This document shows positions 14,257-40,400 of a stretch of 64,000 bases of DNA, one piece after another. Location of the stretch: positions 1,664,001-1,728,000 of the forward strand of contig CAVVPN010000003.1 of the NCBI GenBank assembly GCA_963750165.1, given 5' to 3'. The DNA is from an uncultured Gemmataceae bacterium. Its GTDB lineage: Bacteria; Planctomycetota; Planctomycetia; Gemmatales; Gemmataceae. Position 1 is the stretch's first letter. Each line of letters opens with the position of its first letter. The notes beneath the pieces were generated by a model. The model saw only the letters and a program-made list of their open reading frames with translations. It did not search any database and was not told the DNA's origin. The position numbers and the translations under genes are program-made.

Positions 14257-14283
14257 GGGGGTTCCTCTCAGGAGCAGAAGATG

Positions 14284-14349: not shown

Positions 14350-14362
14350 GAGGCAATCTCAA

Positions 14363-15349: not shown

Positions 15350-15454
15350 GCACGGCCCTCCTGCCCCCACGGCGGTGATTCGGTGACAAATGTATTACCA
15401 GCGACCTACAACAAGGGCCATTGTAGTCGCCCGAGCAACAGGGTGAAGAGGTAA

Positions 15455-16400: not shown

Positions 16401-19400
16401 TCAACCGCCCAGCCCGATCACCCGCCGCTCGTCCCGTTCGTCGCGTGCCAGCGTCGCCAGGCCGGCGGCCAGCAGCGCGCCCGCCATCAGGTCGGCAACA
16501 GTCGCGTCCTCCTCGGTCAGCCAGTTTGCCAGGGCCTGTCCGTGCAGGTCGATGGCGGTTCGGGCGGCGGACGCTGGGGCCTCCTGGGGTGTCGGGATCA
16601 GTTCCGACGGCCCCAGGACACTCGGGGAGCCGTCCGCCGCACGGCCCACGGCCGGGACGAACCGCAGACGCGACGGCACGGGCTGGAGGGTGACCGCCGG
16701 GCCCGATTCCCACGGGAGAGCCGCCGCGGACTCGGAGCCGTTCGGCAACGGCACGCCGGCCAGCGCCGCCGGGGTGTAGGTGCCTTCCCACAACGCGGGC
16801 ATCGGAGCGGGGGGCGGCCCCAGCGGCGCCGGAGCGGACGCGGCCACGCTGTTGCCGTTCGACACCGCCGGCAGGGTGAACACCTGCGGGATGAACGCCT
16901 GCGGGATGGCCGTCTGTGGGGTAACCGTCTGCGGGGCGACCGTTGGCGGCGTGTCCACCGGGAGCGTGCCGCCGTCATCCGCCACCACGAATTCCAGCGT
17001 CATGGGATCCCAGCTGCCGCTGGACTCCGACGGTAGCGGCGCCGAGGACAGGCCGAAGACACTGCGCAGGTAGGCGTCCGAACTGTACGCCCCGCCACCC
17101 TCGCGCGGTAGCACCGCGGTGGAGAAGACGCCAGGGCCGTTGATCTGCGTGCCGAACCCGGCGGACCCCATCAGGTCCGTCGTGCCGTTCAACGCGGTCA
17201 CGTCCCACAGGCCGAAGGTGTGGCCGGCTTCGTGACTGATGGCATTGGCAATCTGCTGCGCATACTGGTCGGCGGTCTCGCCCAGGAAGCTTTCGGCCTG
17301 GCCGACCGCCGCCGCGAACACGAAGCCGATGTCCGTGTACTGGTTGCCCGGATCGACCGGCGCCCCGCCCGCGGTCAGGCTCACCGAGCCCGTGTTGAAG
17401 ACCGGGTTGGTGCCCACCAGCCAGGAACCATCGCCACCCACGTAAATCACCGTGTCGCCCGTGTGGAAGAGTGGGTCGTCCTGCCAATCGTCGTCGCGCA
17501 ACACCTGCACGGGGTACGCCGCAAACTCCGCCCGCACCTCGGTCACGATCTGCTCGATCTGCGTCTCGCGATCAACCCCGCCGAAGGCGACGTAGGCCGG
17601 GTGGGTCACCCCGGTCGCTGCCGGCACCTGCTCCACAGCCGCCGGCGCCGGCAGCGTGCCGCCGGCGAAGTCCAGGAAAATATGCGTCTGTGGCGGGGCG
17701 GGAGCAGGCGGCAGCACGCCCAGAACCTGGCTCTCGAACGTGTAGCGGACGTTGTTCGGGTTGTACAGCGAGAAGCTCCGGGCGGTGGTGGTCTCTCCCG
17801 GGTTCAGGATGCCATCGCCACCGGCCAGGGCGGTCAGGTCGAAGTACGGCGCGCCGCTCGGCAGGGTGCCGGTCGGCTGCAGGACGCTCACGGTTGAGGG
17901 TGACAGGTTGAGCCAGGACAGCCAGATCGGCCCCTGAATCGGCGTGGAGGTGTTGTTCGTCACCGTCCCGTAGAACGAAGTGTTGTGCGTGCTGCGGTTG
18001 TACTGCGTGCCGTAATAGGTGATGGTCAGCATGGACGTGACGTCCACCTGGCCGATGATGGGCAGGACATCAATGACGAAACTGCGCGTCAGCGACAGGC
18101 CGCCCTGGTCGGTGACGCGGACGTCGAGGACCAGCGTGGCCGCGTTCGCGTACAGCACCGACATGCCGAGGTTCAACTCCAGGACATTGTTCACGACCGT
18201 GAAGCGCGCGTCGTTGACCACCGAGTAAGTGAGGGTGTCGCCCACGTCCGGGTCGGTGCCCGTCAGGGTGCCGACCACAGCCCCGGCGTCCTGTTCGGGC
18301 ACGGTGTTATTGCTCAGGGTCAGGTCCGAGGGCGGGTGGTTGACGTGCAGGACCGTGATGGTGAAGTTGTCTGTCACGGATAGGGCGCCCTGGTCGGTGG
18401 CGGTGATGGCCAGCGGCACCGTCGGCTCGGTCTCGTGACTGAGGCTGACACCGCTGGCGAGTTCGAGGACGCTGCCGACCACCTGGAAGCGCGGATCGGA
18501 AACCGTGAAGGTGTGGGTGTCGCCCACGTCGGGGTCGGTCACGGTCAGGTTACCAATGACGGCGCCCGGCGCGTCCTCCAGCACCGTCGTGTTGTCCAGT
18601 GTCACATTCGTCGGCGCGTGGTTGACGTGCAGGACCGTGATGGTGAAGTTGTCTGTCACGGACAGGCCGCCCTGGTCGGTGGCGGTGATGGCCAGCGGCA
18701 CCGTTGGCTCGGTCTCGTGACTGAGGCTGACACCGCTGGCGAGTTCGAGAACGTTGCCGACCACCTGGAAGCGCGGGTCGGAAACCGTGAAGGTGTGGGT
18801 GTCGCCCACGTCGGGGTCAGTCACGGTCAGGTTGCCGATGACCGCGCCGGATGGTCCTCCAGCACCGTCGTGTTGTCCAGCGTCACATTCGTGGGCGCGT
18901 GGTTGATGTGCAGGACCGTGATGATGAAGTTGCGCGTCACGGACAGGCCGCCGGCGTCACTGGCGGTGATGGTCAGCGGCACCGTTGGCTCGGTCTCGTG
19001 ACTGAGGCTGACGCCGCTGGCCAACTCAAGGACGTTGCCGACCACCTGGAAGCGCGGATCGGAGACCGTGAAGGTTGGCGTGTAGCCCATGTCGGGGTTG
19101 ATGACGGTCAGGTTGCCGATGACGGCGCCCGGATGGTCCTCCAGCACCGTCGCGTTGTCCAGTGTCAGGTCGCTCTGTCCCAGACTGACCACGGTGATAG
19201 TCACCATGCCCGGCTGGCTGAGCAGCTGACCGTCGCTGGCCTGGTAGGTGAAGCTGTCCGTACCGCTGAAGCCCGGGTTGGGCGTGTACAGGAACGAGCC
19301 GTCGGCGTTCAGGGTGACGGTGCCGTGCGCCGGCTGAGTGGCGATCTGGGCGGTGAGGGGGTCGTCCTCGGTGTCGGTGTCGTTGGCCAGCACGCCGTTG

Positions 19401-22400
19401 GCGGCGCTCACCTGGAGCGGTTGGTCCTGGCCCGTCGTGTAGCTGTCGGGGTTGGCGAAGGGGGCGTGGTCACCGTCGGGGCCGAGCAGCTGGACGTTGG
19501 CAATGCTCACCGAACTGGCGACGGCGTCGAAGCCGAGCAGTTCCAGGTCCAGCGTCGCCTGGCTGCCGATGGCCAGGCCGGCCAGGCTCACGGTCACGAC
19601 CAGCGGCGTGCCCGGGGTGGCCGTCTGGCCGGAGGTGGCCAGGCCGTCCACGGTGACCTGTGGGCCGAAGAAGGTTTGGCCGGAGGTCTGCACGTTGAAG
19701 AAGGCGTCAGTCTGGGTCAGTCCGGTGGCGGCGCCGACCAGGGTCGTGTTGGTGGTCGGGTTGAGCAGCGCCGCCTCGAAGGCGTCGGGCGGAGCCAGCG
19801 GGCCGTTCGAGCTGAAGTTGGTGGTGACGGTGAAGCGCAGGGCGGTGGCGCCTTCGGGAACGCTGAACGTCTGGGTGAGGCTGGTGAAGACGTTCGGGTT
19901 TTCGCTGAGCACGGCCTGGGCGTTGCTGTTGACCGCGACCGTTCCCTGCGTGGTCCAGCCGAACTGCGAATCGGCGGGGTTGGCGTCGGAGAAATCGCCG
20001 TTGACCAGGTCGTCGCCGGACCAACCGCCTTGCCGCGCGGGTGCGGTGCCGATGCCGAGGAGGCTCGGGACCAGGTTGCTGGTGACGCTGGCGTCCTGGC
20101 GCACGGTGTTGAGGATCTGCACGTCCAGCGGCGAGGGTAAACGGCGGACGCCCGGCTCCAGGGTGAGGCTCATCAGGTCATCGGGATACAGGGACGGGTC
20201 GAGGTCGTCCGCCTGTGGGGCTGCCAGGTTGGCGGAGTAGCCCTTGCCGACGAACATCATGGAGCCGGCGACAATGCCGACGTGGGCGGCGTAGCCGGGA
20301 ATCTGCGGGTCGATGCCGAGCACGTGGCCGACCTCGTGCAGCAGGACGGTGTCCAGGTCGTACTTGCCCGCGGCGGGCGAGCCGGGGAGTGCCTGGAAGG
20401 CGTCGGGGCTGAGCTGCCGGCTAAACGCGGAGTTGTCCAGCGGCGTGGGATCGACGTACCAGCCAACGCCCGCGGCGTCCGGGCTCAGGGTGATGGTGGC
20501 GGCCGTGGGCAGGCCGTCCGGGCCGAGCCCGTCAATGCGAGTCTCGCCCAGTTCGCCTGCAGGCAGTTCCGCAAACGTAACGTTGAACTGAGCGTTGGCG
20601 AGGCCGCCGCTTGGTATGTTCCAGGCCGCCAGGGCTGCGTTCAGGCTGAACGTCTGGAGGCTGTCCAACGATGGATCTTCACCCTGCAAACCGATTGCTG
20701 TGCCCAATTGAGGCGCCGGAGGCGGGACAGGGTACGCGGTGATCAAATTCCCTCGGGCGTCGGTGTAAATCTGGATCCAACTGGTTTGCTGCCCGCCATG
20801 CTTCAAGGAAGTCAATCCGACAATTTGTTGGGTGTCCACGAGGCGGCTGTAAGACGGATTGAGTGCTCCTCCTCCCTGCTGGACCGCCCGCACAGGGGAC
20901 TGAACCACCCCTCTGCTGGTGAGAACTTGTTCGAGTTGACCGACCGAGATGGTGAAGGTCGAGTCATGTTGCGTCGGGGCGGGCCGGAAGTGATTCTGCA
21001 CAAGGTGCACCAGGCCAGCCGTGGTGGATCTGCCATTCCCCGCCCCCTTGGGCGAAAAGCGGGTGGCGAAGTTGGGGACGTTGATGCGGTTTCGTACCAC
21101 GCCAGGAATCGGGGGTTGACTTCCACTCCCGCTTCCCCCGCCGGGATTGCCACCACCGGTCGAGCCACCACCGCCGCTACCGCCTGTGCCTGGTGGACCC
21201 GATGTCGAGTTGCCGTTGGCGGCGTTGGCCCGGCGAGAGGCCGCAATCCCAGCGGCACCGAGCGGGGCAAACGTTTCAACCATGCCACCGATGCCGGCGA
21301 CGCCCATGCGAATTTGCGGATCATCCGTGAACAACCCGGAAACCTGATATCCGAGACTTGAGCCGATCGTTTTATTGACATCGACGGCCGCGTTCACTCC
21401 GTTCTCCAATTGCTGCTGCGCGTAATTCTCTTGCGTGGTGGTCTGGCCATTGCCGCCCATGACCTGAAGACTACCCTGGTTCTGCAGCGGCGTCATGTGA
21501 CAGTTGGGGTCATCGCGCTTACACGAGGTGACCACGTCAATACCGGCCTCAATCCGCCAGTATTGCGCCTGCTGTTCCTGGATTTTCCTCTGCTGGGCCG
21601 CGAGGGCGTCCTGGACCCTGGGGTCGTAGTACCAGAAGGAACTGCTGAAATCGACCTCCTTCAGCAGCTTTTGCAAGGTTTCAGGGGGCAGTTGTTTCAA
21701 CTGATTGACTGGGTCGAACGGCGAAGCGCTCGCGCCGACATCACTCACGGTAGCCCCCCACTCGCCGGGCCGGTAGGACTTGTCGTGCACGGTCAGGCCG
21801 TCGGTCCCGGTGTCCGTCTTCGACTCCTTGACGACGCCGCTCTTCCGCGGCGGTCCGTGGACAGTCACCTCCTCCGGCACATCGTCCGCCGGAGTGTTCG
21901 TGTTAGTGGCTGGCGGCGTTGCCGGGGTTCCCAGGATGCAGCCGCCGGGGCCGCAGATGGCACTCGACGGGGATACCGTCGGCAAGTTGGGCGGAGGCGG
22001 GGGCGGGGGGGGCGGCCCTTGCGCCGCGGGCGCCTGCTGCTCTCCCGTCGGGTCGGTGTAACTCAGCGGGTTCGCCGAGACGTACAGGTAGCGGTTGAGG
22101 GTGATCGGGGCAGTCTCCGCCCCGAGGAAATCGTCCTGGGTGATGAACGACCCGACGGACGGGTCGTAGTACCGCGCCCCGAAATAGTCCAGCCCCGTCC
22201 CCGGGTCGGCGCGTTGGCCGGTGAACTGCACTGGGTTGTTCGACGCGCCGTAGGACGCCAGCACGTTGCCCCAGGGGTCGTACTGGAAGCCCTGGATCAC
22301 GCCTGCGGGGCCGTACAACTCCGAGGTGCTGCCCAGCGCGTCCACGAAGTAAAACTGTTCGACGGGGACCGAGCCGCCGGAGAGCGGGCTCAGCATCGAC

Positions 22401-25400
22401 ACGAGTTGCACGCCGTAGTTGTACTGAATCTGTGTCTGGCCGCTGCCGCTGTATTCGAGCAGCAGGCCGGACGGCCCATACAGATAACGCGTCTCCCCCG
22501 TGGAGTCGATCAGTTTGACCCGCATCCCGGTGTAGTCGTAGTCGAACGTGACCGGGTTGCCGGAAGCGTCCGTGGTCTGCGTCAGCTCGTCCAGCACGTT
22601 GTAGGTGTACGCCGTGGTGCTCGTCGTGCTGACAACGGTCACGACCGGGTTGCCGTTGCCGTTAATCGTGGTGTTGACCTGGCCGACGATCTTGCCGGTG
22701 CGGTTGCCGTTGAGGTCGTACGTGTAGGCGATGCTCTGCGTGGGGGCCATGTAGTCGGTGACGCTCGCCAGTTCGTTGAGCCGGTCGTAGGCGTAGCTCA
22801 GGTCCACCGCCTGGGACGGGTTCGCCGGGTCGGTGCCCGTTTCGCTCTTGCGGTTGCCGTCGTTGTCATATGTGTAGTGCAGTGCCGCCCCGTTGGCATA
22901 AAAGACGTCGGTCAGCCGGTCGAGATGGTCGTAGGAGTATGACGTTGTCTGCGGCGCGCCGCCGTTCAGCCACTGGTGGGACTCGGTCTGCGACGTGCGG
23001 TCGCTGTCGGCGTCGTAGACGTAGGTGAAGCTAGAAATGACAACCGGGCTCGGGCTCGTGGTGTGATTGACCAGCTGGACCAACCGGCCCGCGGGGTCGT
23101 AGCCGCTGTCGGCGGCGGTCCCGTCCGGGTACGCCACCGTGGCGACCAGGCTGTCCTTGTAGTAGGTGTAGGTCGTCGTGCCGGCGCCCGTGTAGACGTG
23201 CCAGATGCGGTTACGGGCGTCGTAGTCGTAGGTGGTCGTGCCGGCGCCCGGGGGCGGTGTCATGGGCGGCAGCGGCTGGTTCGGGCCGGGGTCCTCCACG
23301 CTCTTGAGGTTGCCCTGCGCGTCGTAGGTGTACCTCACGTGGGTGTAGACGTCGTTGGGTCCCAGGTTGTCGTCCCGGGTCTGTTCGGTCACGCGGTCCA
23401 GGGCGTCGTAGACGTAGACGTGCTGCTCGTAGATCGGCGTGGCGGCGTTCCCGTCCGCCCCGGCCTTGGTTTCGTTGACCTGCACGATGTTGTCGTCCGC
23501 GTCGTACTGGTAGACGATGGCCGACGGTTGGAACGGGACGTTCGGGCTGGCGAATTGCGAGTACGCTACCGTCAACAGCCGGTCCCGGTAGTCGTACGTC
23601 ATCGCCGTGACCTGGTTCTTGGGGTCCGTCACCAGCGTCTGGTTGCCGTTGGCGTCGTAGCCGTAATGCCAGTGAATCGCCACGCTCGTCGGGGGGGTGC
23701 CGGGGTACGGCGCGTACGGCGCGGGCCGCGCCGGCGTGGGGCTCAGGGTGCCGGGGGTCAGGTACTGCAAGGTATCCGTGAGCCGGTTCAGCGCGTCGTA
23801 GTAGAACGTGACCAGGTTGCCGTTGGCGTCCTGCTGGGCGATCTTGTTGCGGTTGCCGTCGTAGCGGTAGTAGGTGATGCCTCCGCCGCTCTGCGTCTCG
23901 TTCACGGACAGGAGCGAGCCCAGTTCGTCGTAGGTGTAGGAGGTCGTGTACCCCCGGGGGTCCTTCATGCTGAGGACGTCGTTGTTGGCGTCGTAGGTGT
24001 AAAAGGTCGTGTTGCCCGCGCCGTCGGTCTCGGTCATCATCCGGTGCAGCACGTCGTAGGTGTAGTAGGCGTCGAAATACCCGGCCCGGGGCGGGTTGCT
24101 GGCGTCGGTCGGGAACGACTGCGACGGCCCGGCGTGGGCGCGCGGGCCCTGCACCGACACCAGGTCGCCGACTGAGTCGTACGTGTAGGTGGTCGTGCCG
24201 GCCACGCTGGGGTCGTTGGCCCCCTCCGTCATGCTGATCTTGCGGTTCGCCCCGTCGTAGGCGTAGGTCGTCTCGTTATTGTCGGCGTCGAAGGACGCGG
24301 TCACGTTGTCGTCGCCGTCGTACTGCATCCGCTCCAGCGTCACCGTGCTGGTGCCGTAGCCGGACGACAGTTCGCTGTTCTGCACGCTCAGCGAAATCTC
24401 CCGGCCCAGCGAGTCGTTCTGGTGGATGGTGAGGATCGGCGCGCCGTTCACGATCCGCGGCCCCACGTCAATCACCTGGTTCTGGGCGTCGTGGTACTCC
24501 TCCAGGGTCGTGGTGATTGCGCCGCCGGTGGTGCCGTCCTCGTCAGTTTCGATCAGGCGGTTGTCGGCGTCGTACTGGTACAGGGTCACGTTGTGGTTCG
24601 CGTCGGTCTGGCTGCGCAGGTTGACGCCGTCGTAGACGGAAACGATGGTGGGGTGCACGAACGTCGTCGCTTGCGTGCCGGGGTCGGTAACGGGGACGCC
24701 GGGTTCCGTCACCAGCACCGGCCGGCCCACCGCGTCGAACTGCGTGACCGTGGCGTTGCCGTCGGCGTCCGTCGTGGTGACCTGGTTGGCGGGGTCGTTG
24801 TAGCTGGTGGCCGACAGCGTGAGCTGCTGGCCGCCGTTGCTGAACTGCTCGTACAGCGTCTGGTTGAGCACACGGTTCAGGTTGTCGTAGGTGGTCGTGG
24901 TAACGGTACCGCGCTTGTCCACTTGTTTGACCACGTCGTCGTTGCCGTTGTAGAAGACCGCCTCCGCCGGATTCAATTCGTCCTTGGACGTGAGCATCCG
25001 GCCCAGGCCGTCGTAGGTGTTGACGACGAAGGTGCCGGACGGGTCCGTGATCTTGACGGCGTCACCGTCCTGGTCGTACTGGGTGGTGGTGGTGAGGCCC
25101 AGGCCGCCGACGTCCACGGTGGCGCTGTGGACGCGGTCCAGGCCGTCCAGCACCGTCTCGGTCTTGCCCGAGACGTGCTCGGGGTCGGCCGAGTTGCCGC
25201 GCGGGTCGGTCACGATGACGGTGTTCTGGGCGTCGAGGCTGTAGTCGTAGGTCGTCACGTAGGTCACTTGCTGGGCGCCGCCGGTCGGGTCGCCGAGGTA
25301 CACGGTCTCATCCACTTCCCCGGGTCGATCCAGACCGTCGATCTTGGCCGACGGGGTGGTGATCGTGAGAGTGGTCACCTTGGCGCCGGTCGGGTTCGAC

Positions 25401-28400
25401 TCGTCCAGGGGGCTCTTGTGCGTCTCCAGGATGACGTTGCCGTTGGGGTCGTACTGGTAATCGACCTCGTTGCCCACCGGGTCGGTCTGGGTCAGCAGTC
25501 GGTTGGCGGCGTCGTAGGTGTACTTCGTGACGTGGTCGTCGGCGTCGCTCTGGCTGAGCGTGTTGCCGACCCGGTCGTAGGTCGTCAACTGGTCCGGCGG
25601 CACGGTGACGTACGAGCCGGACAGCGGCAGGTGCACGTCCGTCACGCGGAACAACCAGTCGTACTTGTACGTCGTGGTGTTGCTGTGCAGGTCGGTCTCG
25701 TACTGCTTGTTGCCGACCAGGTCGTAGTGGGCCTGCATGGTCGGTTCGTTGGTCGGGATCGACGGGCCGCCCACGATCACGGTTTCGATCAATCGGTTCA
25801 GGTCGTCGTAGGTGAATTGCTGGTGGATCGGCGCGCTGCCCGGGCCGTCGCGCAGGTCGTACTGGTCGGTGACGTTGTCGTCCTCGTCGTACCTGTACGT
25901 GGTGGAGATGGTGGTGGTCGAATTGTCCGCCTGGAGCACGCCCGGCTCGGTCTGCGTGATCAGGCGGTTGGCGGCGTCGTAGGCGTAATCGGTGACCTGG
26001 CCCATGCCGTTGATCGTCGCGCTGACCTGGCCGCCGGGCAGGTAGAAGGTGATCGTCTCCTCCGCCCACGCCCGGCCGGCGTCCGGGCCGGTCAGCGGGT
26101 GCAGCCCGTCCTGCGGCAGCACGAAGTTGTAAGCCTGGGCGTTCTGGTCGTCGAAATGGACCTCGCGCACCTCGCGGTCCAGGCCGTCGTACGCGTAATC
26201 GACGTGGTGGCCGAATGTGTCCTTCGTCGAGGTGAGCCGGCTGCGGGCGTCGAACGTCTGCGTCGTGGTGATCCCCTGGCTGCCCGAGGTCTGGGCGAAG
26301 GTCTGGGTGGCGTTGCCGTAGGCGTCGTACTGGTACGTGGTCACGAAGCCCTTGGGGTCGGTCTCCTGCGTCAGGTCGCCGGGGCCGACGCCGTTGGCGT
26401 AGGTCGTGCCGGTGTAATATGCGTACTTCGTCACGTCGCCGACGGCGTCGATGGTGGCCAGCAGGTTGCCGTTCAGGTGACCGGGGGTGGGCACGGAGGC
26501 GCCGCCCTGCAACGCCGGCAGCGCTGGCGGCGGGCCGCCCGTGCCGTCGGTCAGGCCGAACGCGGTGTCGTCGTAGACGTAGAAGGTGGTGTGGCCTTCG
26601 CCGTCGGTCGCGCTGGTCTTCTGGCTGAACAGCGGGTCGTAGGTGTAGGAGGTGGTCACGCTGCTCACCTGCCCCCCGGCGGCGGTGTAGACCGGGTCGT
26701 AGATCGACCCGGTGGGGGCGTGGATCGTCTGCGAAATCACGTTGCCGAGCACGTCGTACTTGTAATCGGTCTCCCGGAGTGTCGGGTCCGTCATGGACAC
26801 CAGTTCCACGTCGAGCTTGCCGTCCGCGCGGACGGGCACGGCGGCGGCGTTGGGCTGGTCCATGTTCCAGACCATGGTCGTCTTGGCGGCGCCCGCGTTG
26901 CCGTCCCCGTCCGGGGCGTCGATCTCAATGGCGGCCCCGTAGCTGTCGAGCACGTAGGTGGTCGCCGGGATGCCGGGTCGCGGGTCGGTCACCATGCGTG
27001 TGTTGGCCGTGCTCGATTGCACGCTGAAGTTGTAGCTGAACTGCGTCACGGAAATCCCGGAGCCGCCGGTGGCCGTGGAGGCACCGCCTGGCTCGTCCAC
27101 TTCCTTGACGACCTCGTAGAACGGCACGCCGAAGAAGGGGTTCAGGTTACTGTCCACGTACGAGGCGAACTGGTGGCCGTCGATCAGCGGGTTGCCGCTG
27201 CTGGTGCCGTCGAGGTGGTCGCTCACCTGGAAGTAGGTGTAGGTGGTCGTGTGGTCCTTGTAGTCCGGCGCCAGGCTGCCGTCCGCGTTGAAGCCGTTCG
27301 GCTCGATGTAACTGGTCAGGTTGTGGCCGGTGGGGCCGTTGCCGGGCGTGTAGGTGTAGGCCTGTTTCTGCAGGATCGGGCCGCCCTTGCCGTCCCGGCG
27401 CACCACGCTGGTGAGGTTGCCGGCCACCTCCGGCGGCGGGTCGGTCGGCGCCGCCCCGGGCGGCGGCTCGTCGTAGTTGTACTGAATGTCCAGGCCGCCC
27501 AGGGTGCCGTCGTCGGACGGGTCGGGGTCGTACCCCGTGATCTCCGTGATGCGGTAGGCGTTGTAAATGTACTGGTAGCTGAACAGGAGCGCCCGGCCCG
27601 ACGAGTCCGTCACCGCCTTCACCAGGGTGAGGTCCTGGTTGGCGGCGAAGGCGTCCTGGAAGGGCTGCGCCAGACTGCTGGCGCCGAGGTCGTCCTTGCT
27701 GTAGTACAGGGTGATCTTGTTGCCGTTGGCGTCCTCGATGTAGGCGAGCTGGTACACGGTGGTGCCGTCGTTGACGTCGGCCGGCAGCTGGAGCGGGCGC
27801 AGCACGAAGTGGTAGCGGACGTCCGCCGTGGTGAAGAAGTCGAAACTCGCCTGCCCCGCGACCACGTCCCGGGCCAGTGAGGAGTGGTAGCCGACCTGCG
27901 GGTAGAAGAACTGGGCGCCGGCCGGCAGTCCGTACTGCTGGGCGCGGGCGGCGTTCACGGCGGTCAGCACCGGGTCCAGGGCGCCGACGGTCGTGAAGGT
28001 GTTGCCGCTGCCGTCGCCGCCGACGATGGTGTACTTGCCGCTGCCGTTGTCCACCAGGGTAACGTTGTAGTTGTCGGTCCAGCCGGCACCGAGCGGCCCG
28101 GGGCTGGTGTCGCCAGAACTGGAGTAGCTGCGCGTGAAGGTCAGGTCCAGGCCGCGGCCGGGGACGGTGACGTCCGTGCTGGACATGGTCAGATGGCCGT
28201 CCCAGATGTCCACGCCCTTGACGATGGTGTGCGCGATGGGGTAGGACTGGTCCTCCTCCACGTCATGGTCAAGCTCGGCGGTCTGCGTGGCCGCGGCGTT
28301 GGTGTCGGTGACCGCGGTGACGGTGAGCGTGTAACTGCCTGGCTGGGACACGGCCGGGACGTTGGACAGGTCCGTGGTGTAGATGCCCGGGTCCAGCTGG

Positions 28401-31400
28401 ACATTCTGGAACGTGCCGAAGGGCAGCGAATACGTCTTGCCGGTCACCACGTTGTAGACCTCATCGTCGGGCAGGTCGGTCGCCGGTTGGCCGTCGATCA
28501 GCAGGGTGACCTTGGCCGTGTGATCGACCGAGAACGAAAAGGCCCCGCCCGTGGTGGTAACGGTGCCATTGACCGCATCCACCCGGGTAGTGATGGTCAC
28601 CTTGGTCAGCTTCTTGATGTTCACGCCGGGGTCGATGACCGGGCCGCCCACGGCCTCGGCCGCCAGTTCGGGTTCTTCAGCCGGGGCCGCCTGGATGGCC
28701 GCGGTGGGCTGCAAAATGTAAACGTGTGGCACCAGGCCGTGCATGACGGCGATGCCGCCCGGTCGGCCGCCGGTGGCGATGGGGGCGCGGGACTGGTCGT
28801 AGACGCTGAACGCGAGGGTGTTTGGGTCAGCAATCGGCGCGCCGTAATTGTCCGGGTTGGAGGACGAGAAGGAGTAGTTGGCCCGGTAGTCGGCCTGCAC
28901 GTCGATGGCGGCGTTGGGATTGCGCTGGCCCATCGTGTTGTTGGGGCTGATGGTGCCCATGTCGTCCAGCGGCAGGTCGTCGATCGGCAGCAGGGTCATG
29001 AAGCCGTAGACGAGGCCCTCCGCCTGTTCCGCGGCCTGCTGCTGCGCGATCAGCGTGAGCATCGCCTGGACGTCGAAGACGAAGACGCCGCCCTCCTGCG
29101 GCGTCGGGGTGGTGCCGGGGAGAGCCCCAAAAGCGGTGCCCAGGACGGGGACCGTCTGGTAGCTGACGTAGAGGTAATTGCCGTCGGCCGACAGGGTCAG
29201 GTCCGTGGGGTAGCCGTAGGGGATCGGCCGTGTCGCCGCGATCAGTTTCGGACTGCCGTGCAGGCCGAGCGGGTCCTGGATGATGCCGACGTTGCCGTCC
29301 TCGAACAGCGGGTTGGAGGTCTGGTCGAGGTAGCCGCTGATGCCGCCCGAGACCAGGTTGCCGAAGTCATCGGTGCCGCCGCCGAAGGTGGTCGGCACCA
29401 CGTCGGCGCGGCCGGCGATGAAGGCGTAGGAGTCGTCGGCCGTGAAGACGATGCCGCTGGCGTTGTGCACCTGCAGCCGGTCGTCCTGCGATACGCCGTT
29501 GACGTAATTCAGGTTCAGGGAAATCGGCGTCTTCGTGTTGTTGTTCGGGTTATCGACCTCGACGCCGTAGCTGTCCGTCTGGGCGTTGGTGAAGGCGACG
29601 ACGTCCTGGGGCGGCGTGCCCGACTGGTTCTGCTGGGCCTGCTGGTCCGGCGGCGTCGGCGCCACGGCCACGCCGTAGGTCTGCATGCTGCCGGGGACCG
29701 CCTCGATCTGGGACACCTGTGGCGGCGTGCCCTTGGGCTGGGTCGGGTCGTTCTTCAAAACGATCTCGACCAGGTTGCCGTTGATCAGGTCGAAGTTGCG
29801 GCCGGAGTTGGGGTCGCCGTTCTCGTTCGGGGCCGTGACGTAGAGGTGCAGGTCGTCGGAGCCGATGACCACCTTCCGCAACCCGGTGGGCGCGAGCAGC
29901 GCGTCCGGGCTGAAAGTCCCGTCCGCGTTCTCGATGCCGGCGCTGGCGAGTGCCGCGTCGGGGTTCACCTGCCGCACGATCTGGATGGTGTTGACGACCT
30001 GGTTGTACGTCGGCGAGGCTGGGTCGATGTCGATGACGTAGACGTTGGACGCCAGGTCGCCGGCGTCGAAGCCCTGGCCAGTCGTGGAGTGCTGGCCGCC
30101 GGCGATGACCGGCCGCGAGTCGGCGACGTAGGCGTACTTCCCGGCAGAGTCGATGGCGATGCCGTAAGGCTCGGCGCCGATGGGCAGGTCGATCTCCTTG
30201 CTGCTCGGGTTGGCGTTGATGCCGATGCCCACCTCGTCGATGACGGTGCCGTTGCCATCCGGCGCGTCCGGCGCGAGAGCCGCAGCCGGTAGAACCCGTT
30301 TTTCAGGTCGGCGTAGGCGGTCGGGTCGAAGCTGTCCAGGACGACCGTGTCCGCCGTGCCGGTGCCGGACGCCAGGTGCTGGACGAGGCTCCACGTTGGC
30401 GTCCAGGCCCCCAGGTCCAGCGTCCAGTCGCCGTCCGTGACGATACCGCGGATGTCGAACGGGCCGGTGATCGTCTTGAGACGCAGGGCGGGGTCCAGGC
30501 CGCCGCCGTTGCCCGACACCGGCACGGGCGTCGTCTCATCCTGGGCCGGTGGCGGACTGTTGCCGTTGACGTTGATCTCCTGCAGCGACAGGGTGTCCAC
30601 GACCGCCACCTGGCCGGAGCCGCGCAGGGTGACATAGGCGCGCGTGTTGTCCGGGGTGACGGCCACGTCGCGCGGCAGTGGGAAATCGGAAGGATCGCCC
30701 AGCGGGATCTGGGCGATTTCCTTGTTGAAGGAATCGGGAGTGTCGTTGGTGCCGTCGTGGGTGGAGTCGCCATCGATCACGGCCAGGGCGCCGTCGATGC
30801 CGGTGACCTGGTTGCCGGTGTAGTCATACTGCAGTTCCGGCAGGGCGACGAAGACATACTGTCCGCTCGGGTTGAGCTTGACGGCGTTGCCGGTGATCGG
30901 CGCCGGCTGACCCATGGTGGGAGCGTTGCCCTGGCCGTAGGGCGGCGACACGTTGGCCGTGTCGGTGCGCGTGACGCTGATCTCGGCCGTCCCGACAGCC
31001 AGGGTTGTGGGCGCCGGCACGTGGATGTCCATGGCCCCGGGCGCGACGGCGTCGTTGGGGCCGGGGGCGGTGAGGGTGAGGCCCTGGAGGACGCCCTCGG
31101 TGACGGTCAGGCCGTTCGCCGCGGTGAAGGTGACGGACAGGTTGTTCGGGTTGTCGCCCGTGCCGGTGGCGGTCACGACCACATCCGGTTGGAGACCGTT
31201 CGAGGTCGTGGACGGCTCGAAGTTGATCTGGGCCTCGACGATCTGCGGCCCCGGAGCCTGTGCGGCCACCTGGGTCGGGTCGAGGGTGATGGAAAACTTC
31301 GTGACCTGGTTCGCGTTGATCTGGACGTTGTTGACGGTCACGTCGGGCAGGCCGAACTTCGGGATGCGCTCGACCACGACGGGCACCGGGTCGCCGCCGT

Positions 31401-34400
31401 TGGTGGGCGTGGTCATGGAGATCAGGCCGGTGTTGGCGTCGATGATGGAGCCCAGGGTGACGCCGAAGACATCCGTCGTGTAGAGGTCCACGGCTTCCAC
31501 CGACGTGAGCACGTTCTGGATTTCGGCCTGGATGGCCTGCTGAGTCTGGCCCGTGGCCTGGCCGATCTGGTCGATGTCGGCCGCCAACTCCAGTTCGCCG
31601 AGGTCGTTGGCATTGCCACTCACGACCAGGAGCAGGTCCGATTCGTCGATACCGGGATACGGCGGCGAGGCGGTGTGGGCCAGGCCGTCAGCGCCGACCA
31701 CGCCGTCGTCGGTCTCCCACCAGATGGGCATGAGGTTGCCGCTGGCGTCCGGGACCTGGCCGGCGCAGGAATAACACCGGGGTGCCGACAGCGAGGCCCG
31801 GCGCCGGGATCGCCATCTGCACGGGGACGTTGAGCGGGTTGGAGCCGAGGTTGAGTTGGTAGGCGGCGAGGAAGTTGAAGCCCTGCGGAACGCCCTGGGG
31901 CAGACTGGACTGCGCCACCGGGGTGATGCTGACGGTCGTGGGCTGGGTCAGGTCGTTCGGCGCCACCGCCACCAGCGAACCGTCGCTACCCTCCACCACG
32001 CCACCGCTCTTGTCCACCGTCCCGGGGCCGACCTGCGGCGCCTGCACCGACACCGTGGTCCGCGCCTCGGCAGGCCCGTGGATGACCGTCACGGTCACGG
32101 TGCCGGGCGCCACCGCCGTCAGCAGCCCGTCGGGGCTGACCATCACCACGCCCGGTTGACTCAGGTAATACTGCGTCCCGGTGGCGCCAGCCGAGAGGTT
32201 GTTCGCCAGTTGATAGTCGTCGCCCGGGTACACGTCGAGCTGCCGGGTGCCGCCGGCGCTGCTCAGGGTCACCGACAGCGGATACAGGTTCAGTCCGGCG
32301 TTGAGCAGTTCCTGGTCGAGCCCGTCCGACGGTTTGCCGACGGTGACGGCGGTGGCGGCCTGCAGGCCCTGGGCTGTGGCGATCAGGGTCGTCGTCCCCG
32401 TGGCCACACCGACGAGCCGGCCATCGGCGGAGATCGTTGCCACCGAGGAGTTCGTGAGCTGCGTTGCCACATAGGACGGATCGAGCACGACGTTCTGCTG
32501 GTCGGCGAAGTTGCCGACAAACACCTCGGGTACGAAGCCGCCGATGGCCAGGCGCGGCGTGCGCTGCTGGAAATCCAGGCTGACCAGCGGCGCGGCACTG
32601 ACGTTGACCGTGACGGTGGCTGTGGGAGACACTTCCAGGCCGTCGTCGGCCGTGAACTCGAAGTCCGCCGTGCCGGTGAAACCCGCGGCCGGCACGAACG
32701 TGACGGTGTGGCCGTCGGGATTGAGGGTTGCCGTGCCGTTGTCCGCCCCGAGGAGGTGGAAGTACACCGGCTCGCCCTGAGGGTCGCTGGCCAGCGGAGC
32801 CAGGTCGAACTGGACCGGCAGGCCGGCGTGGGTCAGAACCGTGCCGTTCTGGGCTGTCGGCGGCTGAGTCACCTGGAAGCCGTAGTTGGCCGCGACCAGC
32901 TGCACGTCGGCCGCGTCAATGGTGCCGTCGCGGTTGGCGTCGGCGGCGACGGAATAACCGGTCTGTCCCGCCATCGTGCCGACGAGACTGGCCACCAGCG
33001 TGCCGTCCGTGCCGTTCACGTCGCCGTCCTGGTTGGCGTCGCCGGCGATGAAGAGGTGCAGCGTGTAGGCCCCGGAGGTGGCGGCGTTGGCGCCGCTGAT
33101 CTGGAGCAGTTCCAGACCGGCACGGCTGACGGCGAACAGGGCGAACGCGCTATCGCTGCTGCTGTGCTGCACCAGCGGCGTCAGGCCGGCAACGGCCGGC
33201 ACGGCCGGCTGCACCGTACTGCCGGCGGCGGCATCCACCTCGACTCCCAGGTAGACGGTCCCGCTCGGGGGCGAGGCGACTTCCGAGGCGGTCAGCAGGA
33301 AGGTGAAGGAGTTGGTACTGCTGGCCGCCAGGTTGCCGTTGTAGTTCCCGGCCAGGAACTGGCTGGTGCCGCCGAGGTCCGCCGTCAGCGGCACGACCTG
33401 GACGGGGTTGCTGTAGTTGATGGCCGCGCCGCTGCCGGCCACGGGCGCGGTGGCCAGGGTGAGCAAGTGTGGGTCGTTCATGGCGTAGCCGTAGCGGCTA
33501 CTCAGCCCGGTGGCCGCGTTGTGAGCCGAGACCAGGTTGCCCGCGGCGTCATAGGTGTAGACGATCCGCGTCCCGTCCGGCGCCTCAATCGTGCTGATCC
33601 GCCCGGCCGCGTCACGGATGAAGCGCACCGCGTCGCCGGTGGAGCTGGAAATACCGCCGCCGCTGAAGTAGAGCGTCTGGCCGCCGTGCAGGATTTCTTC
33701 CGTCACGCCGCGGGTCGCACTCACGTAGTACACCGTGCCATCGGGGCCGGTCAGGGTGTACTGGGGACCGGTGAACTGGCCGCTGGCGGGGTTGTACGGC
33801 AGGGCGGTCTGGGCGTCGTAGAAGCCGCTGCCGCCGCGAATCAGCACCGCCCCTGCGGAAGCGAGTTGCCAGCCCACGCCGGGGTCGGACTTGTACGCCG
33901 GGGTGTAGTAGGAGACGCCCGACTGGTCGTGGCGCTGCGGGGCGAAGGTGAAGCCGACCCGTTCGCCGTCGGGCAGAGTCAGGTAGACGCGCGTGCCCTC
34001 AACGAAGGGGTTGTAAACGCCGTCGGCCTCCAGTCCGGTCGGCGGCACACTGGTCCGCAGGTCGGTGTCCTGAACGGCCAGGCTCCAGCCGTAGCCGAAG
34101 CTGCCCAAGTCGTTGCGGTCCAGCGAATCGTACACGCGTGTCAGGTTGACCGTGGCCGCGCCCAGTTGCACCGTCAGGTCGGTTTCCGATCGCAGGTACT
34201 GCCCGGTCTTGGTGGCCGTGTCCACTTCCAGAGTCAGGGTGGTCTGGCTGGTCCGCCCGGAGATGTTGGTCGCCGTCAACAGCAACTGATAGACGCCGTT
34301 GCGCAGGGTGCTGGGATCGAGGGTCGCCAGGGTGGCGTTGTTCACGGACGTGGTGCCGCTCGCCAGAATGGTGTAGGTGGTGTCGCCGAGCGAGACGGCC

Positions 34401-37400
34401 TGCAAGGTCCAGGTATCGAGATTGCTGTCGCTCACCGTGCCGGTCACGGTGGTCGCGGTGGTAAGGATGACCCCGTTCAGGGTAGGGGCGAGTTCGACCA
34501 CGGGAGATCCAGTGTCATTGGGATCGCGGACCTTGACCACGGCGCTGGCCTGGCCCGTGTTGCCATCCACGTCCGTGGCGGTGGCTGCGAATTGCGCACG
34601 GCCCGGGGCGGTGGGCGTGTACTGATGGCGGCCCTGGGCGTCCAGCGTCACTGGCTGGCCGTCCTGGGTCAGCGTCAGCCCGGCAATGCCGGCAACGCCG
34701 GTGGCGGTGACGTGGACGATGACCGACTGGCCCGGCACGGTGGGGAAGCTCGGCGTCACCGTGACGGTGACGGTCGGGGCCTGGCTGGCGAGCAGAGCGT
34801 GCATCACCGCCGTCTGCTGGGCGGACAGCTGCCCGTCGGAAACCGAGAAGACGACGGGGTAATCGCCCGACTGGCCGGCGGCCGGCGTCCACGTGAACAC
34901 GCCAGTGGTGGCGGAGAACGCGGCCCCGGCCGGCAGTCCCGTGGCCGAGAAGGTCAGGACATCGCCCACGTCCGGGTCGCTGGCAGTGACCGTGAACTGC
35001 AACTGCTCCCCGACCAGGACGGAATGATCGACCACCTGAATCGTGGGCGGCCGATCCACGTTAGCGATCTGGATGGTCACGTTCTTGGTGTTGCTCAACC
35101 CGGACGGGTCAGTCGCGGCGAAGGTTAACATGTAGGTGCCGGCCTGCGTGTAGTCCGGCGTCCAGGTGAATTGCCCGGATGAGGAATCGAGCTGGGCGTG
35201 CGCTGGCAGGGTCGTGAGCGCGGAGAAAGTGACGGAGTCGTTGTCCGGGTCCGTGGCCGCCAGGGTGAACGCCACCGGCGCCCCCTCGCGTCCCGACTGG
35301 TTGCCGACGGGCAGCAGGGTCGGCGGCTGGTCGGTGTTGGTGACGTGGACGGTGATGGTCTGGAACACAGTCTGGTTGCCGTCGCTGGCCCCGAACACCA
35401 CGCTCGGATAAGTACCAGCCTCGAACAGGTTGGGCGTCCAGGTCAGGATGCCGTGCTGCGGGTCGAAGGTCGAACCGGGCGGCGCGTTGGCGACCGAGTA
35501 AGTCAGGCTGTCGCCGTCCGGGTCCGTGGCCGCCAGGGTCACCGTGAGCGGCTGGCCCTCCGCGACGGTCTGGTTGCCGGGGTTCTGCAATACCGGCGCC
35601 TGGTTGCTGGTACGCACCACCAGATGAATGGTCTGCTGATCGGAGGCGACCAGCGCGGGGTTGCCGTTGCCGGTGTTCGTCACCACGAAGGTGACGCCGT
35701 AGTCGCCCACCTCGTCGGCGGTCGGCACCCAGCTGACGGACGCCTGGCCGTAAATGGCACTGGGCACAATGGTCGCCCCGTCGGGCAGGCCCGTGGCAGT
35801 GAAGGTCAGCGGCTGCTGGTCCAGGTCGGTCGCCTGGAGGGTGAGCTGGAAGGGGGTATCGACGACGGCCACCTTGTTGCCAATGTAGCTCAGAGAGGGC
35901 GGTTCACTGGCCACCTGGACGGCCAGCACGAAACTCTCCTGCGTGGACCGCGGCGTGGTCTGGCCGTTGCGGCCGTTGTCGGCGGCCGTCACCGTGATGG
36001 TGTAGTTGCCCTTGTCCGGCAGCCCCGGCGTGAACTGGAACGTTCCCGTGTTGTTGCCGTTGTCGGTAAACGTGCCGAAGGCGGGCAACCCGGTCACGGT
36101 GAGGGCGACGTGGTCGCCGTCCGGGTCCGTGGCCGTCACCGGAACGGTCAGGGTGGACCCGCCCGGCACCGTCTGATCGACGATGGGCGTGAGCACCGGC
36201 GGCCGGTCCACCGGCAGCACGTTGAGGGTGACGGTGTCCGACGTGCTCAGGTCCACGCCGGTGCCGTCGCCGGTGTCCGTGGCCGTGAACGTCACCTGGA
36301 AAGGGCCGACCTGGGTAAAGCTCGGCGTCCAGGTGAACAGCAGTGTCTGGTTGTCGAAGGTGGCCCCGGCGGGCAGGCCGCTGACAGTGTAATTGACCGT
36401 GGCGGGCGGCCCGTCCCCGGGCGTGAGCGAGCCGTCGGGATTGCGGGTCGGCGGCGCGAAACTGGGGTTGTCGGGGTCGAACGCCTGGGCGATGAACTGG
36501 AGCTGTTGGTTTTCCAGCACCTGGAAGGTGGTCAGGTTCTGGAACACCGGCGGAGCGTTCACGTTCAGGATCGCGAGGTTCGCTGTTCGGGTCGTGCTGA
36601 CCTGGCCGTTGCTGACGGTGAAGTCCACCTTGTAAATACCGTGCTGCGTGTAGCCCGGCGTCCACGTGAACAGGCCGCTGGTCGGGTCCAGGACCGAGCC
36701 GTTGGGCAGGTTGTCGCTGGAGAAAGTCAGGGGCACGCCCGCCACGTCGCTGGCCTGGAGTTGAATGTGGACCTGGGCGCCTTCCTGGCCGATGGTGTCG
36801 GCGGGCTGCAGCAAGGTGGGCGGCGGCGGGTTCGAGGCGATGATGATCGTGATGTCCTGGCTGACCTGGCGCAGTCCGTCGCTGACGGTCAGGGTCACGT
36901 CCGGGTAGGTCCCGGCGGCCCCGTAGGCCGGTGTCCACGACAGGACCTTCAGGGTTGGGTCGAACACGGCTCCGGGCGGCAGGTTATCGGCCCAGTACGT
37001 CAGCGGGCTGTTTTCGGGATCGGTGGCCGCCACCTGAACGGTCAGGGGCACGCCCTCCGTGCCGGTGACCTGGGTGGGTAGTCCCGTGAACGCCGGCGGC
37101 TGATTCACACCACCGATCACCACGGTATACACCTGCGTGGCGACGGAACCGGCGTCGTCGTACACCTGCACCACCACGGTCGCCGAGGCCGGGCTGTTGG
37201 GGGTCGGTGTCCAGGAGACCAGGCCGGTCGCGGGGTTCATCGTCATCCCGGCCGGGCCGCGCACCAGCAAGTAGCTCAACTCGTCGCCGTCGGGATCAAA
37301 GCCGATGGCCTGGTAGCTGTAGGTCTGGCCGACGGTCGCGCTGGTGATCGGTTCGGTGACGAACACCGGCGGCTGATTCGCGGCGGTCAAGCCACTCACC

Positions 37401-40400
37401 GAAGGGTCGAAGGCCACGGGCTGGCCGTTCTTCATCACGACGGTGATGGTCTGGCCGGTGGAGCTTTGCCCCGGATTCAGGATGCCGTCCGCCGGCAGGC
37501 TGCCGCTCAGGTCGATCAACCACGAGCCGTCCGGGCCGCGGCCGAGGTTGCCTTGCGGTTCGCCCGGGAACTGATTCAGCGGGTTGAGGTGCAGCACCAC
37601 GGGCAGCAGGATCGCGTGACTGCTGACGTTGGTCACGGTCACGTCGAACGACACCGTCCCGGTGTTCCGGTCACTGCGGGACAGGCCGAACTGCAGGTTG
37701 AGGATGCCCGACAGGTCCGCCGTGGCGGTAAAGTCCGAATCATACTCCGCAGGCAGGGGAATGCCCCGGGCGCTTTTCAAGCCCGTGAGCACGCGCAGTT
37801 TGTAATGGTCCGCGCTGAGGGCGTTGAAGGACAGGGTGACCGTGCGGGTGGTCGGGTTGTAGGTGACAGCCTGGATGGCTTGCGGCCCGGTCGAGTCGCC
37901 GGTGAGGCGGTAGTTGTTCGGGTTGAGCACCGAGTTGGGGTCGGCGGCGCTGTCGGCCTGCATGTCCTGGTCGAAGACGATGCTGATGCTGCCCAGGGGC
38001 AGGGCCACGTCACTGCCGGGCGGCGGGTTGACGGCGATCACGTGTGGGGCCGTGATGGGGCCGAGCACATCGACCTGGTGCGACTGGCTGAGCAGCACGC
38101 GACCGTCCGCCGTGGTCTTGATCTCGTCGCCGCGGCTGCCACCGGTCGCCACCGCCAGCACCTGCATGGTCGCCAGGTCCACCATCGACAGCTCACTGCC
38201 CTGGGTGGCGGACACGGGTTCATCGTGACTGGCGAACAGCAGACCGGAGAGCGCAGTGCCTGTCTGGCCGAAGGCGATGGAGTCCACCTCGTCGGCGAAT
38301 TCCAGTTCCTTCACGGCCGTGCCGTCGGCGTTGAAGCGGATGATGTCGCCCGGGTCGGTCGGCCACAGGGCCGCCCACAGACTATCGTCGGCCGGGTTGA
38401 AGGCCAGGCTGCCGACGCGCAGGTTGCTGAAGTGCGTGAACGTCGCCGTGCTGGGGTTGAAGATTTCGACGCCCTGGCCGGAGGAGACGTAGATCAGGCC
38501 CGTCGCCGGGTCGATGGCCAGCGACTGTGTCAGGCTGTCGCCGTACTGGCCGAGGATGGCCCCGGTGTTCGGGTCGAGCTGGAGCAGGGGGCCGCCGCCG
38601 GTCGTGGCCCAGAGGTTGCCCGTGCCGGTGAAGGCGAAGTCGTAGATCGGGAACGGCAGCGTCGCCAGGGGGGCACCGACCGCACCGCCGGAGACGGGCA
38701 GCAGGAAAAGCTGATTGCGGCCCGGCCCGCCGCTGACCAGCACCGAGCCGTCCGGCCGCACACCGATGGCCACGGGGCCGATGTTGGCGTGACTCTGGGC
38801 GATGCCCGTGGCGAAGGCGCCGCCCGCGAACGGCTGCAACACCTTCGTGAACTCCGGCTTCTGGGTCGCCGGCAACGCCGAGGGGATGCCCTGCTGGGCC
38901 TGGGTGAACAGGGCGTTGGGCGTCGGCGGCGTGTTGTTCTGCGGCGGCGGCGCCGGCGGCACGTCGGGCGGCGTCTCCTGCGGCACAGACGGCAGCGCGC
39001 CCAGGTTGGCCTGCCCGCCGGCCGCGGGGACGGTGACGCCGGTGGACGGCTGCTCCTGGTTGCCGGCGTAGTCCGTCGCCAGGGCCAGGAAGGTGTAGGT
39101 GTGGCCCGCCTGGCCCTGGTACACGTCCGTGGTGTCGGTCGTCTGGTTGAGCCAGATTTGATAGTTGCCGCCGTTGTCGGAGACGTAGACGGTCACGCCC
39201 TTGACGCCCGAGCCGTCAGCGTCGTCCTGGGCGTTCCAGGTCACCTGGTAGTTCGAGCTGCCCGCCATCAGCGGCGTGGCGGTCAGCGTCGTGGTCGGGG
39301 CGGTGCCGTCGATGGTCCAGGTCTGGCTGCCGGTGTCCAGTGGCGGCGCGTTGTCGAACAACACGGTGGCATCGGCGCTGATCTGTGTGCCGGTGGCCAG
39401 CCCCTTCTGCGGCTGGACGGTGTAGCTGATGAAGCCCGTCTGCCCCGGGGCCAGCAGGCCGATACTCGGGTTTTGCAGGACCTCGCCGGTGTTGGGGTCG
39501 ATGGCCTGGATCAGCCAGGTGGCCGTGTTGGTGTCCAGGTCCATGCCGGCGCTGATGCGCAGGATGAAGCCGTGCGACTGCGAGTAGTCGATGTCGCCCT
39601 GGAAGGTGCCCCCCGCCGTGTCGGGCAGCGGCACGGACAGGTCGCCGATTTCGATGCTGCCCAGGTGGAAGGTGCGCGGGTCGAGGTTGGGGTCGAGTTG
39701 CTGCACGACGCGGATCTGGTGTACCGCGGCGCCCGCGTTGTCGGGGTTGGCGAAGCCGACGGTGAACGGCAGGTCCTGGCCCTCGGGCAGGAACTGCTGC
39801 GGCCCGTAGCCGGTCGGCCCCATCAGGGTGGTGTTGGTGCCGGCAACCGCGGAGCCGCTCAGGAACTGGTTGATGTCCGCCGCCTGCGGCCCCTGGGCAC
39901 CGACCAGGTCCGGGTAATAGATGTCGCCGTCCGGCTCGTCGCCGTCGCCGCTGTCATCGTCGTCGTCCAAAGTGGACACGTCGCGCACGTAGACGTTGAA
40001 CGCCTCGAAGGACGCCGGGGCGGCGCCGCCGAGGTTGAACTGGCTGGCGGTCGGCAGCGGGGCGGTGACGCCGATCGAGACAGGGTTGACGCCCGGCTCC
40101 ACGTTCGACTCGCTGCTGCCGTACCACTGCGCCACCTGGGCGAAGAACGCCGGCAGGTTGCCGGTGGTGATGATCTGGTCGCCCTGCGAGCCGGCGAGGA
40201 TGCCGGCCGCCAGCGTGTCGGTCAGGCTGGCGACGTCGGGGTCAAGGTGGACAGCGGGCGGCACGTCCACCGGCCGCAGCAGCCCCGCCTGCTGCAGTGC
40301 CGTCAGGTACAGCGCGTCCCAGGAGGTGGCGTCGGCCGCCAGCGCCTTCAGCGCCGGCATGGCCGTCGAGTCGTTCAGCACGCCCTGCCGCAGCGTCTCC

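Follow-up and report, generated by a model that had tools for sequence, protein, structure and literature searches.

A giant Rhs protein of an uncultured Gemmataceae bacterium carries a variable, predicted RNase toxin domain within its chain and has no adjacent immunity gene

How can a protein carry a toxin-type domain in the middle of its chain, with no immunity gene beside it? The question is raised by a giant gene on the minus strand (16401 to 56016) of the window, by which we mean the whole 64,000-nucleotide (nt) stretch analyzed here (contig CAVVPN010000003.1, positions 1,664,001 to 1,728,000, of an uncultured Gemmataceae bacterium). The genome that carries it (G000) consists of 12 contigs totaling 9.6 Mb, at 93% completeness. 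The gene is some 13,200 codons long and is divided over five overlapping frames; its start codon is an estimate, and all its features described below are on the same strand. Its fourth frame, open reading frame (ORF) 18827..30394, carries an Rhs/YD shell (22043 to 28213) with DUF6531 (E = 4e-13), RHS repeats (RHS_repeat, E = 2e-84), and an Rhs-associated core (TIGR03696, E = 6e-21), which make the product a member of the Rhs family; library scans of the shell gave TEN_YD-shell and propeller matches that were weak only. The core closes with NPLSYTDPTG at 22072 to 22043. An earlier note on this DNA had recognized the motif, but the span it gave, 22043 to 22054, covers DPTG alone (22054 to 22043). 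As that note had also described, some 440 residues follow without a stop: from DPTG to the end of ITAYPVP (20723) there are 440 codons, and the frame stays open.

The architecture recurs. We found the order of Rhs core, 323 to 667 variable residues, and leishmanolysin-fold domain in 16 proteins, including that of the window. Proteins with both the core and the downstream domain accounted for 7 of 13 matches among proteins of 2,120 to 6,747 amino acids (aa; 1,787 candidates scored) and for 5 of 58 matches among shorter proteins; genome loci L024, L026, and L108 and the window complete the set. Locus L016 is laid out likewise, except that a frame break interrupts it at the Rhs core. Genome searches found members in 3 of 266 genomes of the window's own order (G087 without the core) and in 1 of 251 genomes of another order, and no Rhs core was present in the 12 further genome regions taken. 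Since 15 other proteins read through the core into the same downstream domain, the read-through at the end of the window insert is not a one-off error.

Between its conserved flanks the segment varies, as the earlier note had expected. In 14 members (P0192, on which the pattern failed, and L108, which was found later, lie outside this comparison), median pairwise identity was 42.7% for the core and 51.0% for the downstream domain, versus 20.0% for the tip region, where shuffled sequences gave 19.2%. Related tips occur only among P0002, P0003, and P0004. A tree built from the 250 residues that precede DPxG contains two scaffold clades; in it, the window protein grouped with P0003 (100/99) and P0004 with P0007 (100/100), and the tips within each pair are unrelated; P0165 and P0170 have a window-like segment ahead of the tip and carry other tips. 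PT-HINT lies inside the insert of 5 of the 16 members (P0002 to P0005 and P0172) and of the fragments P0166, P0169, and P0191, with Cys and His-Asn intact throughout, and in the fragment P0175 Ntox47 (E = 4.6e-18) occupies the same internal position, directly before the downstream domain. Other tips, for which there was no library match, we take by eye to be PD-(D/E)xK-like (P0002 to P0005 and L026), papain-like (P0006 and P0007), nucleotidyltransferase-like (P0165), and deaminase-like (P0191); a sequence search of solved structures with the P0174 and P0191 tips matched only the HINT domain 2lwy. A variable payload on a conserved scaffold is what polymorphic toxins have, and we are highly confident in this layout and in its polymorphism across the family.

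The Arg, the first Asp, and the final Asp of the Rhs protease, whose roles in autoproteolysis we take from PMC13018210 (used, like all papers cited below, for the part of its text that was covered), are visible in all 16 members, although the first motif of the window is degenerate (QDDFLG). Their retention suggests that a cut at DPxG by the Rhs core is likely and gives a basis to the DPxG cleavage that the earlier note had proposed.

The tip of the window insert, its last 136 residues (20723 to 21130), has 265 relatives at E ≤ 1e-3 among 1.84 billion representatives. Elsewhere the family is C-terminal: in 148 of 150 listed relatives the protein ends no more than 10 residues from the domain, and in all 150 no more than 30. 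Close relatives terminate in YP[VI]PKP; the window reads YPVPPPAP and then runs on. Among 16 relatives scanned, the carriers were RHS (five), haemagglutinin or PT-VENN/DUF637 (three), LXG (two), other families (two), and none (four), and PT-HINT is also among the carrier families. A model built from 52 sequences (predicted local distance difference test [pLDDT], 89) shows a helix followed by a meander sheet, as in BECR toxins. Compared with 48,161 chains, it gave seven matches at Z ≥ 5, six of them RNase-type toxins: the tRNase YxiD (Z 8.0; root mean square deviation [RMSD], 3.0; 92 residues aligned), MafB2-CT (6.9), CdiA-CT of Y. kristensenii (Ykris; 6.4), BrnT (5.6), and two further CdiA-CTs, 7m5f (5.4) and Kp342 (5.2); the remaining one is an unrelated protein (5.8). 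By the tool's own caution a Z below 8 can reflect a common arrangement, and the fold call draws its weight from the agreement of these rows on RNase-type toxins.

The residues of the tip are consistent with this fold. H42, H47, and R96 are invariant in the family and T131 is nearly so (94%), which supplies the conserved His and the terminal-strand Ser/Thr of BECR toxins. Of the 41 columns with at least 80% conservation across the other 51 rows, the window tip keeps 32; among these are the four residues just named and every column invariant among those rows, and one of the nine misses is only the start Met column. The Ntox50 profile (PF15542) did not match the window tip and matched 2 of the 52 family members weakly (best E, 0.0026), and a sequence search of solved structures with the tip alignment yielded no real match. 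The atlas neighbors of the tip included the EndoU, RNAse_A_bac, Ntox35, and Ntox50 clusters at 0.88 to 0.91, a recognition below the atlas threshold, and a search of 400 other genomes of the phylum did not turn up the tip family. Altogether, the window tip probably belongs to an unnamed family of BECR RNases and is intact, and an active toxin in the insert is likely. The toxin-type segment of the earlier note thus holds, in terms of a predicted fold and of the family's C-terminal place elsewhere.

No Pfam or NCBIfam family was recognized in the 440-residue insert. It opens with a pre-toxin region (21245 to 22042), in which a Pro-rich stretch precedes the segment common to P0165 (41%) and P0170 (32%) and for which the atlas leads were weak (MafB and PT-TG at 0.84), and passes through a Gly/Ser linker (21131 to 21244) into the tip. 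The GC content at third codon positions (GC3) was 0.66 to 0.71 across 21754 to 20609, versus 0.88 to 0.94 in the flanks, whose 136-codon windows never fell below 0.85. This codon usage marks the insert as foreign DNA that was fitted into the reading frame.

The earlier note had reported no immunity gene, and our data agree. The next gene (15519 to 16247, minus strand) starts about 153 nt downstream and encodes a PEP-CTERM protein (E = 0.006) that is not immunity-like. For comparison, we used 49 loci with a canonical tip (46 metagenome and 3 plasmid). A stop follows the tip within 8 codons in 48 of them, and a complete coupled ORF was called after it in 38 (2 were cut off, and 9 were not called by the rule used). 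These ORFs form two families: one of 35 loci (about 160 to 185 aa, with two CxxC), whose 28 distinct sequences include many close relatives, and one of 3 loci (111 to 123 aa). Like the tip family, both lack a Pfam model (L028 to L072 and L074 to L076). Neither was found in 123,579 six-frame segments of G000 (best E, 6.4), with leave-out controls detecting 11 of 11 for the first profile (E, 1e-14 to 3e-5) and the second profile being built on three sequences with no control. Moreover, a coupled immunity-like gene was present in none of the four loci with a visible gene end (the window, L016, L026, and L108): a DUF3854-like fragment (E = 0.002, below the cutoff) follows L016, a BBP7 porin lies more than 500 nt off after L026, and a DUF4291 gene lies 680 nt off after L108. 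We also rejected the idea that an overlapping 189-codon ORF (20812..21381) is a nested immunity gene, since a frame of that length arises in 71 of 500 synonymous shuffles and the ORF has no relatives in the 49 loci. G000 does contain a canonical Rhs-HINT gene of 3,751 codons (C11:709,000-721,000, minus strand), with a low-GC C-terminal tip and a coupled 146-aa ORF; this gene has a frame break at the HINT end. At C11:903,000-910,400 (plus strand) lie two further Rhs cores with short C-terminal tips, the first followed by a leucine-rich-repeat-like gene. Thus, the window protein is an Rhs protein that departs from polymorphic toxin systems in two defining respects, a toxin domain that is not C-terminal and no cognate immunity gene directly downstream, yet it swaps toxin-type domains as they do.

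What follows the cargo is a read-through linker (20675 to 20722), where relatives have their stop codon and the model has low confidence, and then a leishmanolysin-fold metallopeptidase-like domain (20090 to 20674) with HEVGH (20338), Asp at the presumed third-ligand position, and a Met-turn-like DDLMS motif. A model of 20770 to 19475 (pLDDT, 81) resembles leishmanolysin (1lml; Z 11.9; RMSD, 2.5; 157 residues), so that fold, HExxH, and Met-turn of leishmanolysin-like metzincins are all present in the model; HExxH is found in 16 of 16 members. Next come a carbohydrate-binding module (CBM)-like NGDF jelly-roll (19475 to 20017; NGDF at 20002), with CBM4/CBM16-type Foldseek rows and Z 12.7 to 8xmz, and Big_9 and cadherin-like repeats (18060 to 19468). 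A second HExxH domain lies at approximately 17050 to 17690 (HEAGHTFGLWD, 17234 to 17202; TDLMGS, 17180 to 17163), for which Pfam offered only Zincin_1 at E = 0.24, and the chain ends near a short hydrophobic tail (16446 to 16490). The earlier note had strung all of these into one chain of about 1,400 aa past the insert. HEVGHVLG, NGDF, Big_9, and the cadherin-like repeats do follow in frame; however, the frame stops at 18827, 631 codons past the tip, and HEAGHTFG and the tail sit in the separate ORF 16401..18824, so that about 1,430 codons follow the tip if the break is crossed. The surface anchoring that the note had assigned to the tail fared poorly: its best 19-residue hydropathy, 1.68, is marginal, and homologues lack it and end in dockerin, MBG repeats, or low-complexity tails. 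The PEP-CTERM protein encoded next door carries a paralogue of the NGDF domain (31% over 126 aa; E = 4e-7) and may be a partner of the giant protein or a stand-alone surface lectin. Two unrelated Rhs proteins, P0010 and P0013, extend 1,007 and 969 aa past DPxG in helical and low-complexity sequence with no Pfam family, so a long tail is not special in itself.

Upstream of the shell, an N-terminal adhesin stalk (28214 to 56016) consists of beta-rich repeats in which Pfam and NCBIfam recognized two Laminin_G_3 domains, CARDB, PPC, He_PIG/Big_9/cadherin-like domains, a dockerin, and a beta-propeller repeat; a small separate YD/RHS-like stretch (33,500 to 33,700, within ORF 31688..47524) lies next to the dockerin, far upstream of the main shell. 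The giant gene has four frame breaks, at about 47,530, 31,765, 30,280, and 18,850, the last within the Big_9 and cadherin-like repeats. Alignment showed that the second and third are spanned by the unbroken database proteins P0003, P0006, and P0007, and the third also by P0005, and G842 has an unbroken open frame of 10,959 codons with the same body. A codon-usage scan of six contigs, a heuristic used without a control genome that recovered three of the four breaks, flagged 567 candidate breaks across 7.08 Mb of coding DNA, or 0.8 per 10 kb. Because four breaks in 39.6 kb match this background density, they are probably assembly errors.

We lean, with slightly better than even confidence, toward the following explanation: a giant exported planctomycete adhesin with a swappable internal cargo of toxin type that is cut at DPxG, likely cut a second time, and aimed at non-kin. 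The chain would be exported before folding, so that the RNase would never meet the RNA of its producer. The Rhs core would cut at DPxG and free the N terminus of the cargo, with HINT domains making a second N-terminal cut in some members. The cargo, of about 45 kDa, would lie within or next to the shell. Some 1,870 residues come after DPxG, more than we infer that a shell could hold, so the chain would have to exit across the wall, as teneurin chains do. Still attached by its C terminus once the first cut was made, the cargo would need a second one for release; a further cut in the linker upon contact, most likely by the adjacent metallopeptidase-like domain, would set it free. That this neighboring domain performs the release is a fair guess that we put somewhat short of even. 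The target would be prey bacteria or microbial eukaryotes, and a non-kin target would be the reason that no immunity gene is kept. The internal position of the cargo may have arisen because giant proteins keep the metallopeptidase-like module near their C terminus and the Rhs-cargo unit entered the chain ahead of that module. The lack of immunity would fit export before folding combined with a non-kin target, as has been read for PVC toxins, and this combination seems simpler than self-protection by tethering. More tentatively, two built-in proteases, the Rhs aspartyl site and the leishmanolysin-fold domain, might excise the mid-chain cargo for use without immunity genes against prey or microbial eukaryotes, which would make these proteins a separate effector-carrier class within planctomycete giant adhesins. 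If true, the metallopeptidase-like module would serve planctomycete giant proteins in general as a signal for processing.

Several observations weigh against this explanation. Toxin activity and cleavage are predictions from sequence and models, expression is presumed, and the route by which the cargo would enter a target cell is hypothetical. The fold match of the tip to YxiD is moderate, Foldseek found no tip match at E ≤ 0.001 (7m5f ranked first and 9v8i fifth), and the C-terminal His of the YxiD HxVP motif is absent, the window reading AYPVP. At the N terminus of the giant protein, the motif that we take to be a putative export signal drew no match in Pfam, PF07595 included. The presumed third-ligand position of the metallopeptidase-like domain is His in nine members, Asp in four, Glu in two, and unparsed in one. 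In addition, the read-through linker is unplaced in the model (pLDDT < 50) and holds no reliable shared cut motif. Six SUKH genes in G000, together with its completeness, may leave room for unlinked immunity, and the four frame breaks could be real. Finally, the same domain occurs in Rhs-free giant proteins, namely, five others in G000 (copies at C3:556149-566672, C4:235127-259477, C11:1496162-1508740, and C12:1103496-1105958) and L025 and L094 to L104, mostly 115 to 250 residues from the protein end. Being frequent there, it is not dedicated to toxin release, the role that the earlier note had suggested as possible, and it is possibly a general near-terminal module of giant proteins, perhaps for processing or sorting. 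In L094 to L103 it directly follows a dockerin-like motif. One candidate linker motif, which occurs in 6 of 16 members versus 5 of 46 others, was rejected because it had been picked post hoc.

Some of these points are what other explanations would predict. The missing cut site agrees with a tethered A-B unit, in which DPxG or HINT cleavage would be the sole cut, the whole enzyme-metallopeptidase-CBM-cadherin fragment would be the toxin, and its C-terminal part would bind the target, where processing would occur in the manner of MARTX. The CBM-like jelly-roll and the adhesin repeats downstream speak for it, as does the arrangement of MARTX itself, with variable central effectors between conserved flanks (PMC4453568). 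We nevertheless consider it unlikely: no translocation domain was recognized past the tip, and the 120 to 160 residues beyond the metallopeptidase-like domain in P0007 and P0008 are too little for a binding arm. The Rhs-free proteins, in turn, place ordinary hydrolases before the same domain (a subtilase in P0176 and Endonuclease_NS in P0182), and in animal teneurins an inactive Tox-GHH lies outside the shell (PMC5851990). Both facts would suit a domesticated or extracellular enzyme, a surface cargo that digests outside RNA, DNA, or protein or serves in recognition as in teneurins and that, being nontoxic, needs no immunity. Against it stand the Rhs Arg and both Asp, kept in every member unlike in teneurins, the intact HINT residues, and the conserved tip residues; moreover, the cargo families stem from toxin carriers, and scavenging does not predict the swapping of unrelated enzymes. 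We give this explanation a low probability.

The foreign GC3 of the insert and the frame breaks, four in the window gene and several in L016 and L026, could also be read as traces of recombination, by which tips from ordinary Rhs loci enter via the shared core, lose their stop and immunity gene, and are tolerated or decay. Such a by-product is improbable in view of 16 in-frame fusions on at least two Rhs scaffolds, unbroken members of up to 10,959 aa, a break density equal to the genome background, and the retention of conserved tip columns. An assembly artifact, by which a stop codon and an immunity gene behind ITAYPVP were lost, is highly improbable. The number of frame-break candidates in this genome gives the idea some ground, but the 15 other proteins, which come from separate assemblies, show the same read-through, and the linker length agrees. 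We retain the exported adhesin with an internal, swappable cargo as the working explanation.

The surroundings of the giant gene add the following. Downstream of the locus, genes at 13417 to 15454 (minus strand) are putatively rpsB- and tsf-like; by these labels, the locus presumably sits in a chromosomal core-gene neighborhood. Two promoter-like sites lie at 15483 and 15447. Upstream, a short repeated sequence (56481 to 56870) has repeated peptide motifs in overlapping ORFs, and two small coupled genes (58352 to 58845, minus strand), the downstream one ParE-like (E = 2e-4), form a probable type II toxin-antitoxin pair.

The layout bears on how toxins are sought. Mining for a variable C terminus plus an immunity gene is likely to miss mid-chain cargo, whereas the conserved flanks offer a simple handle to harvest it; here some 14 unrelated tip sequences lie between them, most with no Pfam family. 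The work also yields an unnamed BECR toxin family and two unnamed immunity families and suggests what planctomycete giant proteins might do, in a form concrete enough to be tested. We found no description of the layout in the searchable literature, which comprised main texts with few subscription papers. PMC12057145 reports Rhs-like domains in a PVC giant protein, with no payload analysis in the text covered, and the text covered of PMC11573180 mentions neither Rhs nor toxin. Such architectures may already be listed in Additional File 1 of PMC3482391, and the tip family may be among the profiles of a BECR preprint.

Each known system resembles the window protein in part. Canonical Rhs/YD toxins, such as type VI secretion system Rhs proteins and WapA (PMC3482391, PMC12704120), share with it DUF6531, RHS repeats, a DPxG core, and a variable payload after the core; like other polymorphic toxins, they also share PT-HINT in some members and toxin families common to LXG and CdiA carriers. 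Unlike in them, conserved domains follow the payload of the window protein in frame, no immunity gene is adjacent, and the scaffold is an adhesin of about 13,000 residues. The best structural matches of the tip, the Ntox50 tRNases YxiD and MafB2-CT (PMC12700104), differ from it in sequence (12 to 15% identity), in the HxVP histidine, and in their immunity families. PVC-metallopeptidase toxins likewise set a constant zincin beside variable toxins, which it is proposed to release, and many lack immunity genes, which has been read as aim at distant organisms (PMC3482391). In those systems, the peptidase precedes a C-terminal toxin, carries the motif HExxHxxQ-E, and belongs to a phage-tail system; here, it follows the cargo, is predicted to have the leishmanolysin fold, and reads HEVGHVLG. 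MARTX (PMC4453568) also has variable central effectors, conserved flanks, and an autoprocessing protease in the chain, but with RTX-type repeats, a cysteine protease, and no Rhs shell, and no homology was seen.

The teneurins offer further parallels. Bacterial teneurin-like proteins (PMC13018210) have a surface-exposed Rhs shell, an adhesion-type N terminus, DPxG autoproteolysis, and a polymorphic payload, as the window protein appears to; in contrast, their payload is C-terminal and about 15 kDa, with a downstream immunity gene in almost all. In chimeras of these proteins the shell alone failed to protect Escherichia coli, which weakens protection by enclosure as an account of the window protein. 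Animal teneurins (PMC5851990) offer the structural precedent, since their chain goes on past the Rhs core and exits the shell via a gap. They are uncleaved at that site, and their tail is fixed and inactive, whereas the window family keeps the protease residues and swaps the segment. The window protein would be a bacterial counterpart of this teneurin arrangement, its chain too passing out of the Rhs shell.

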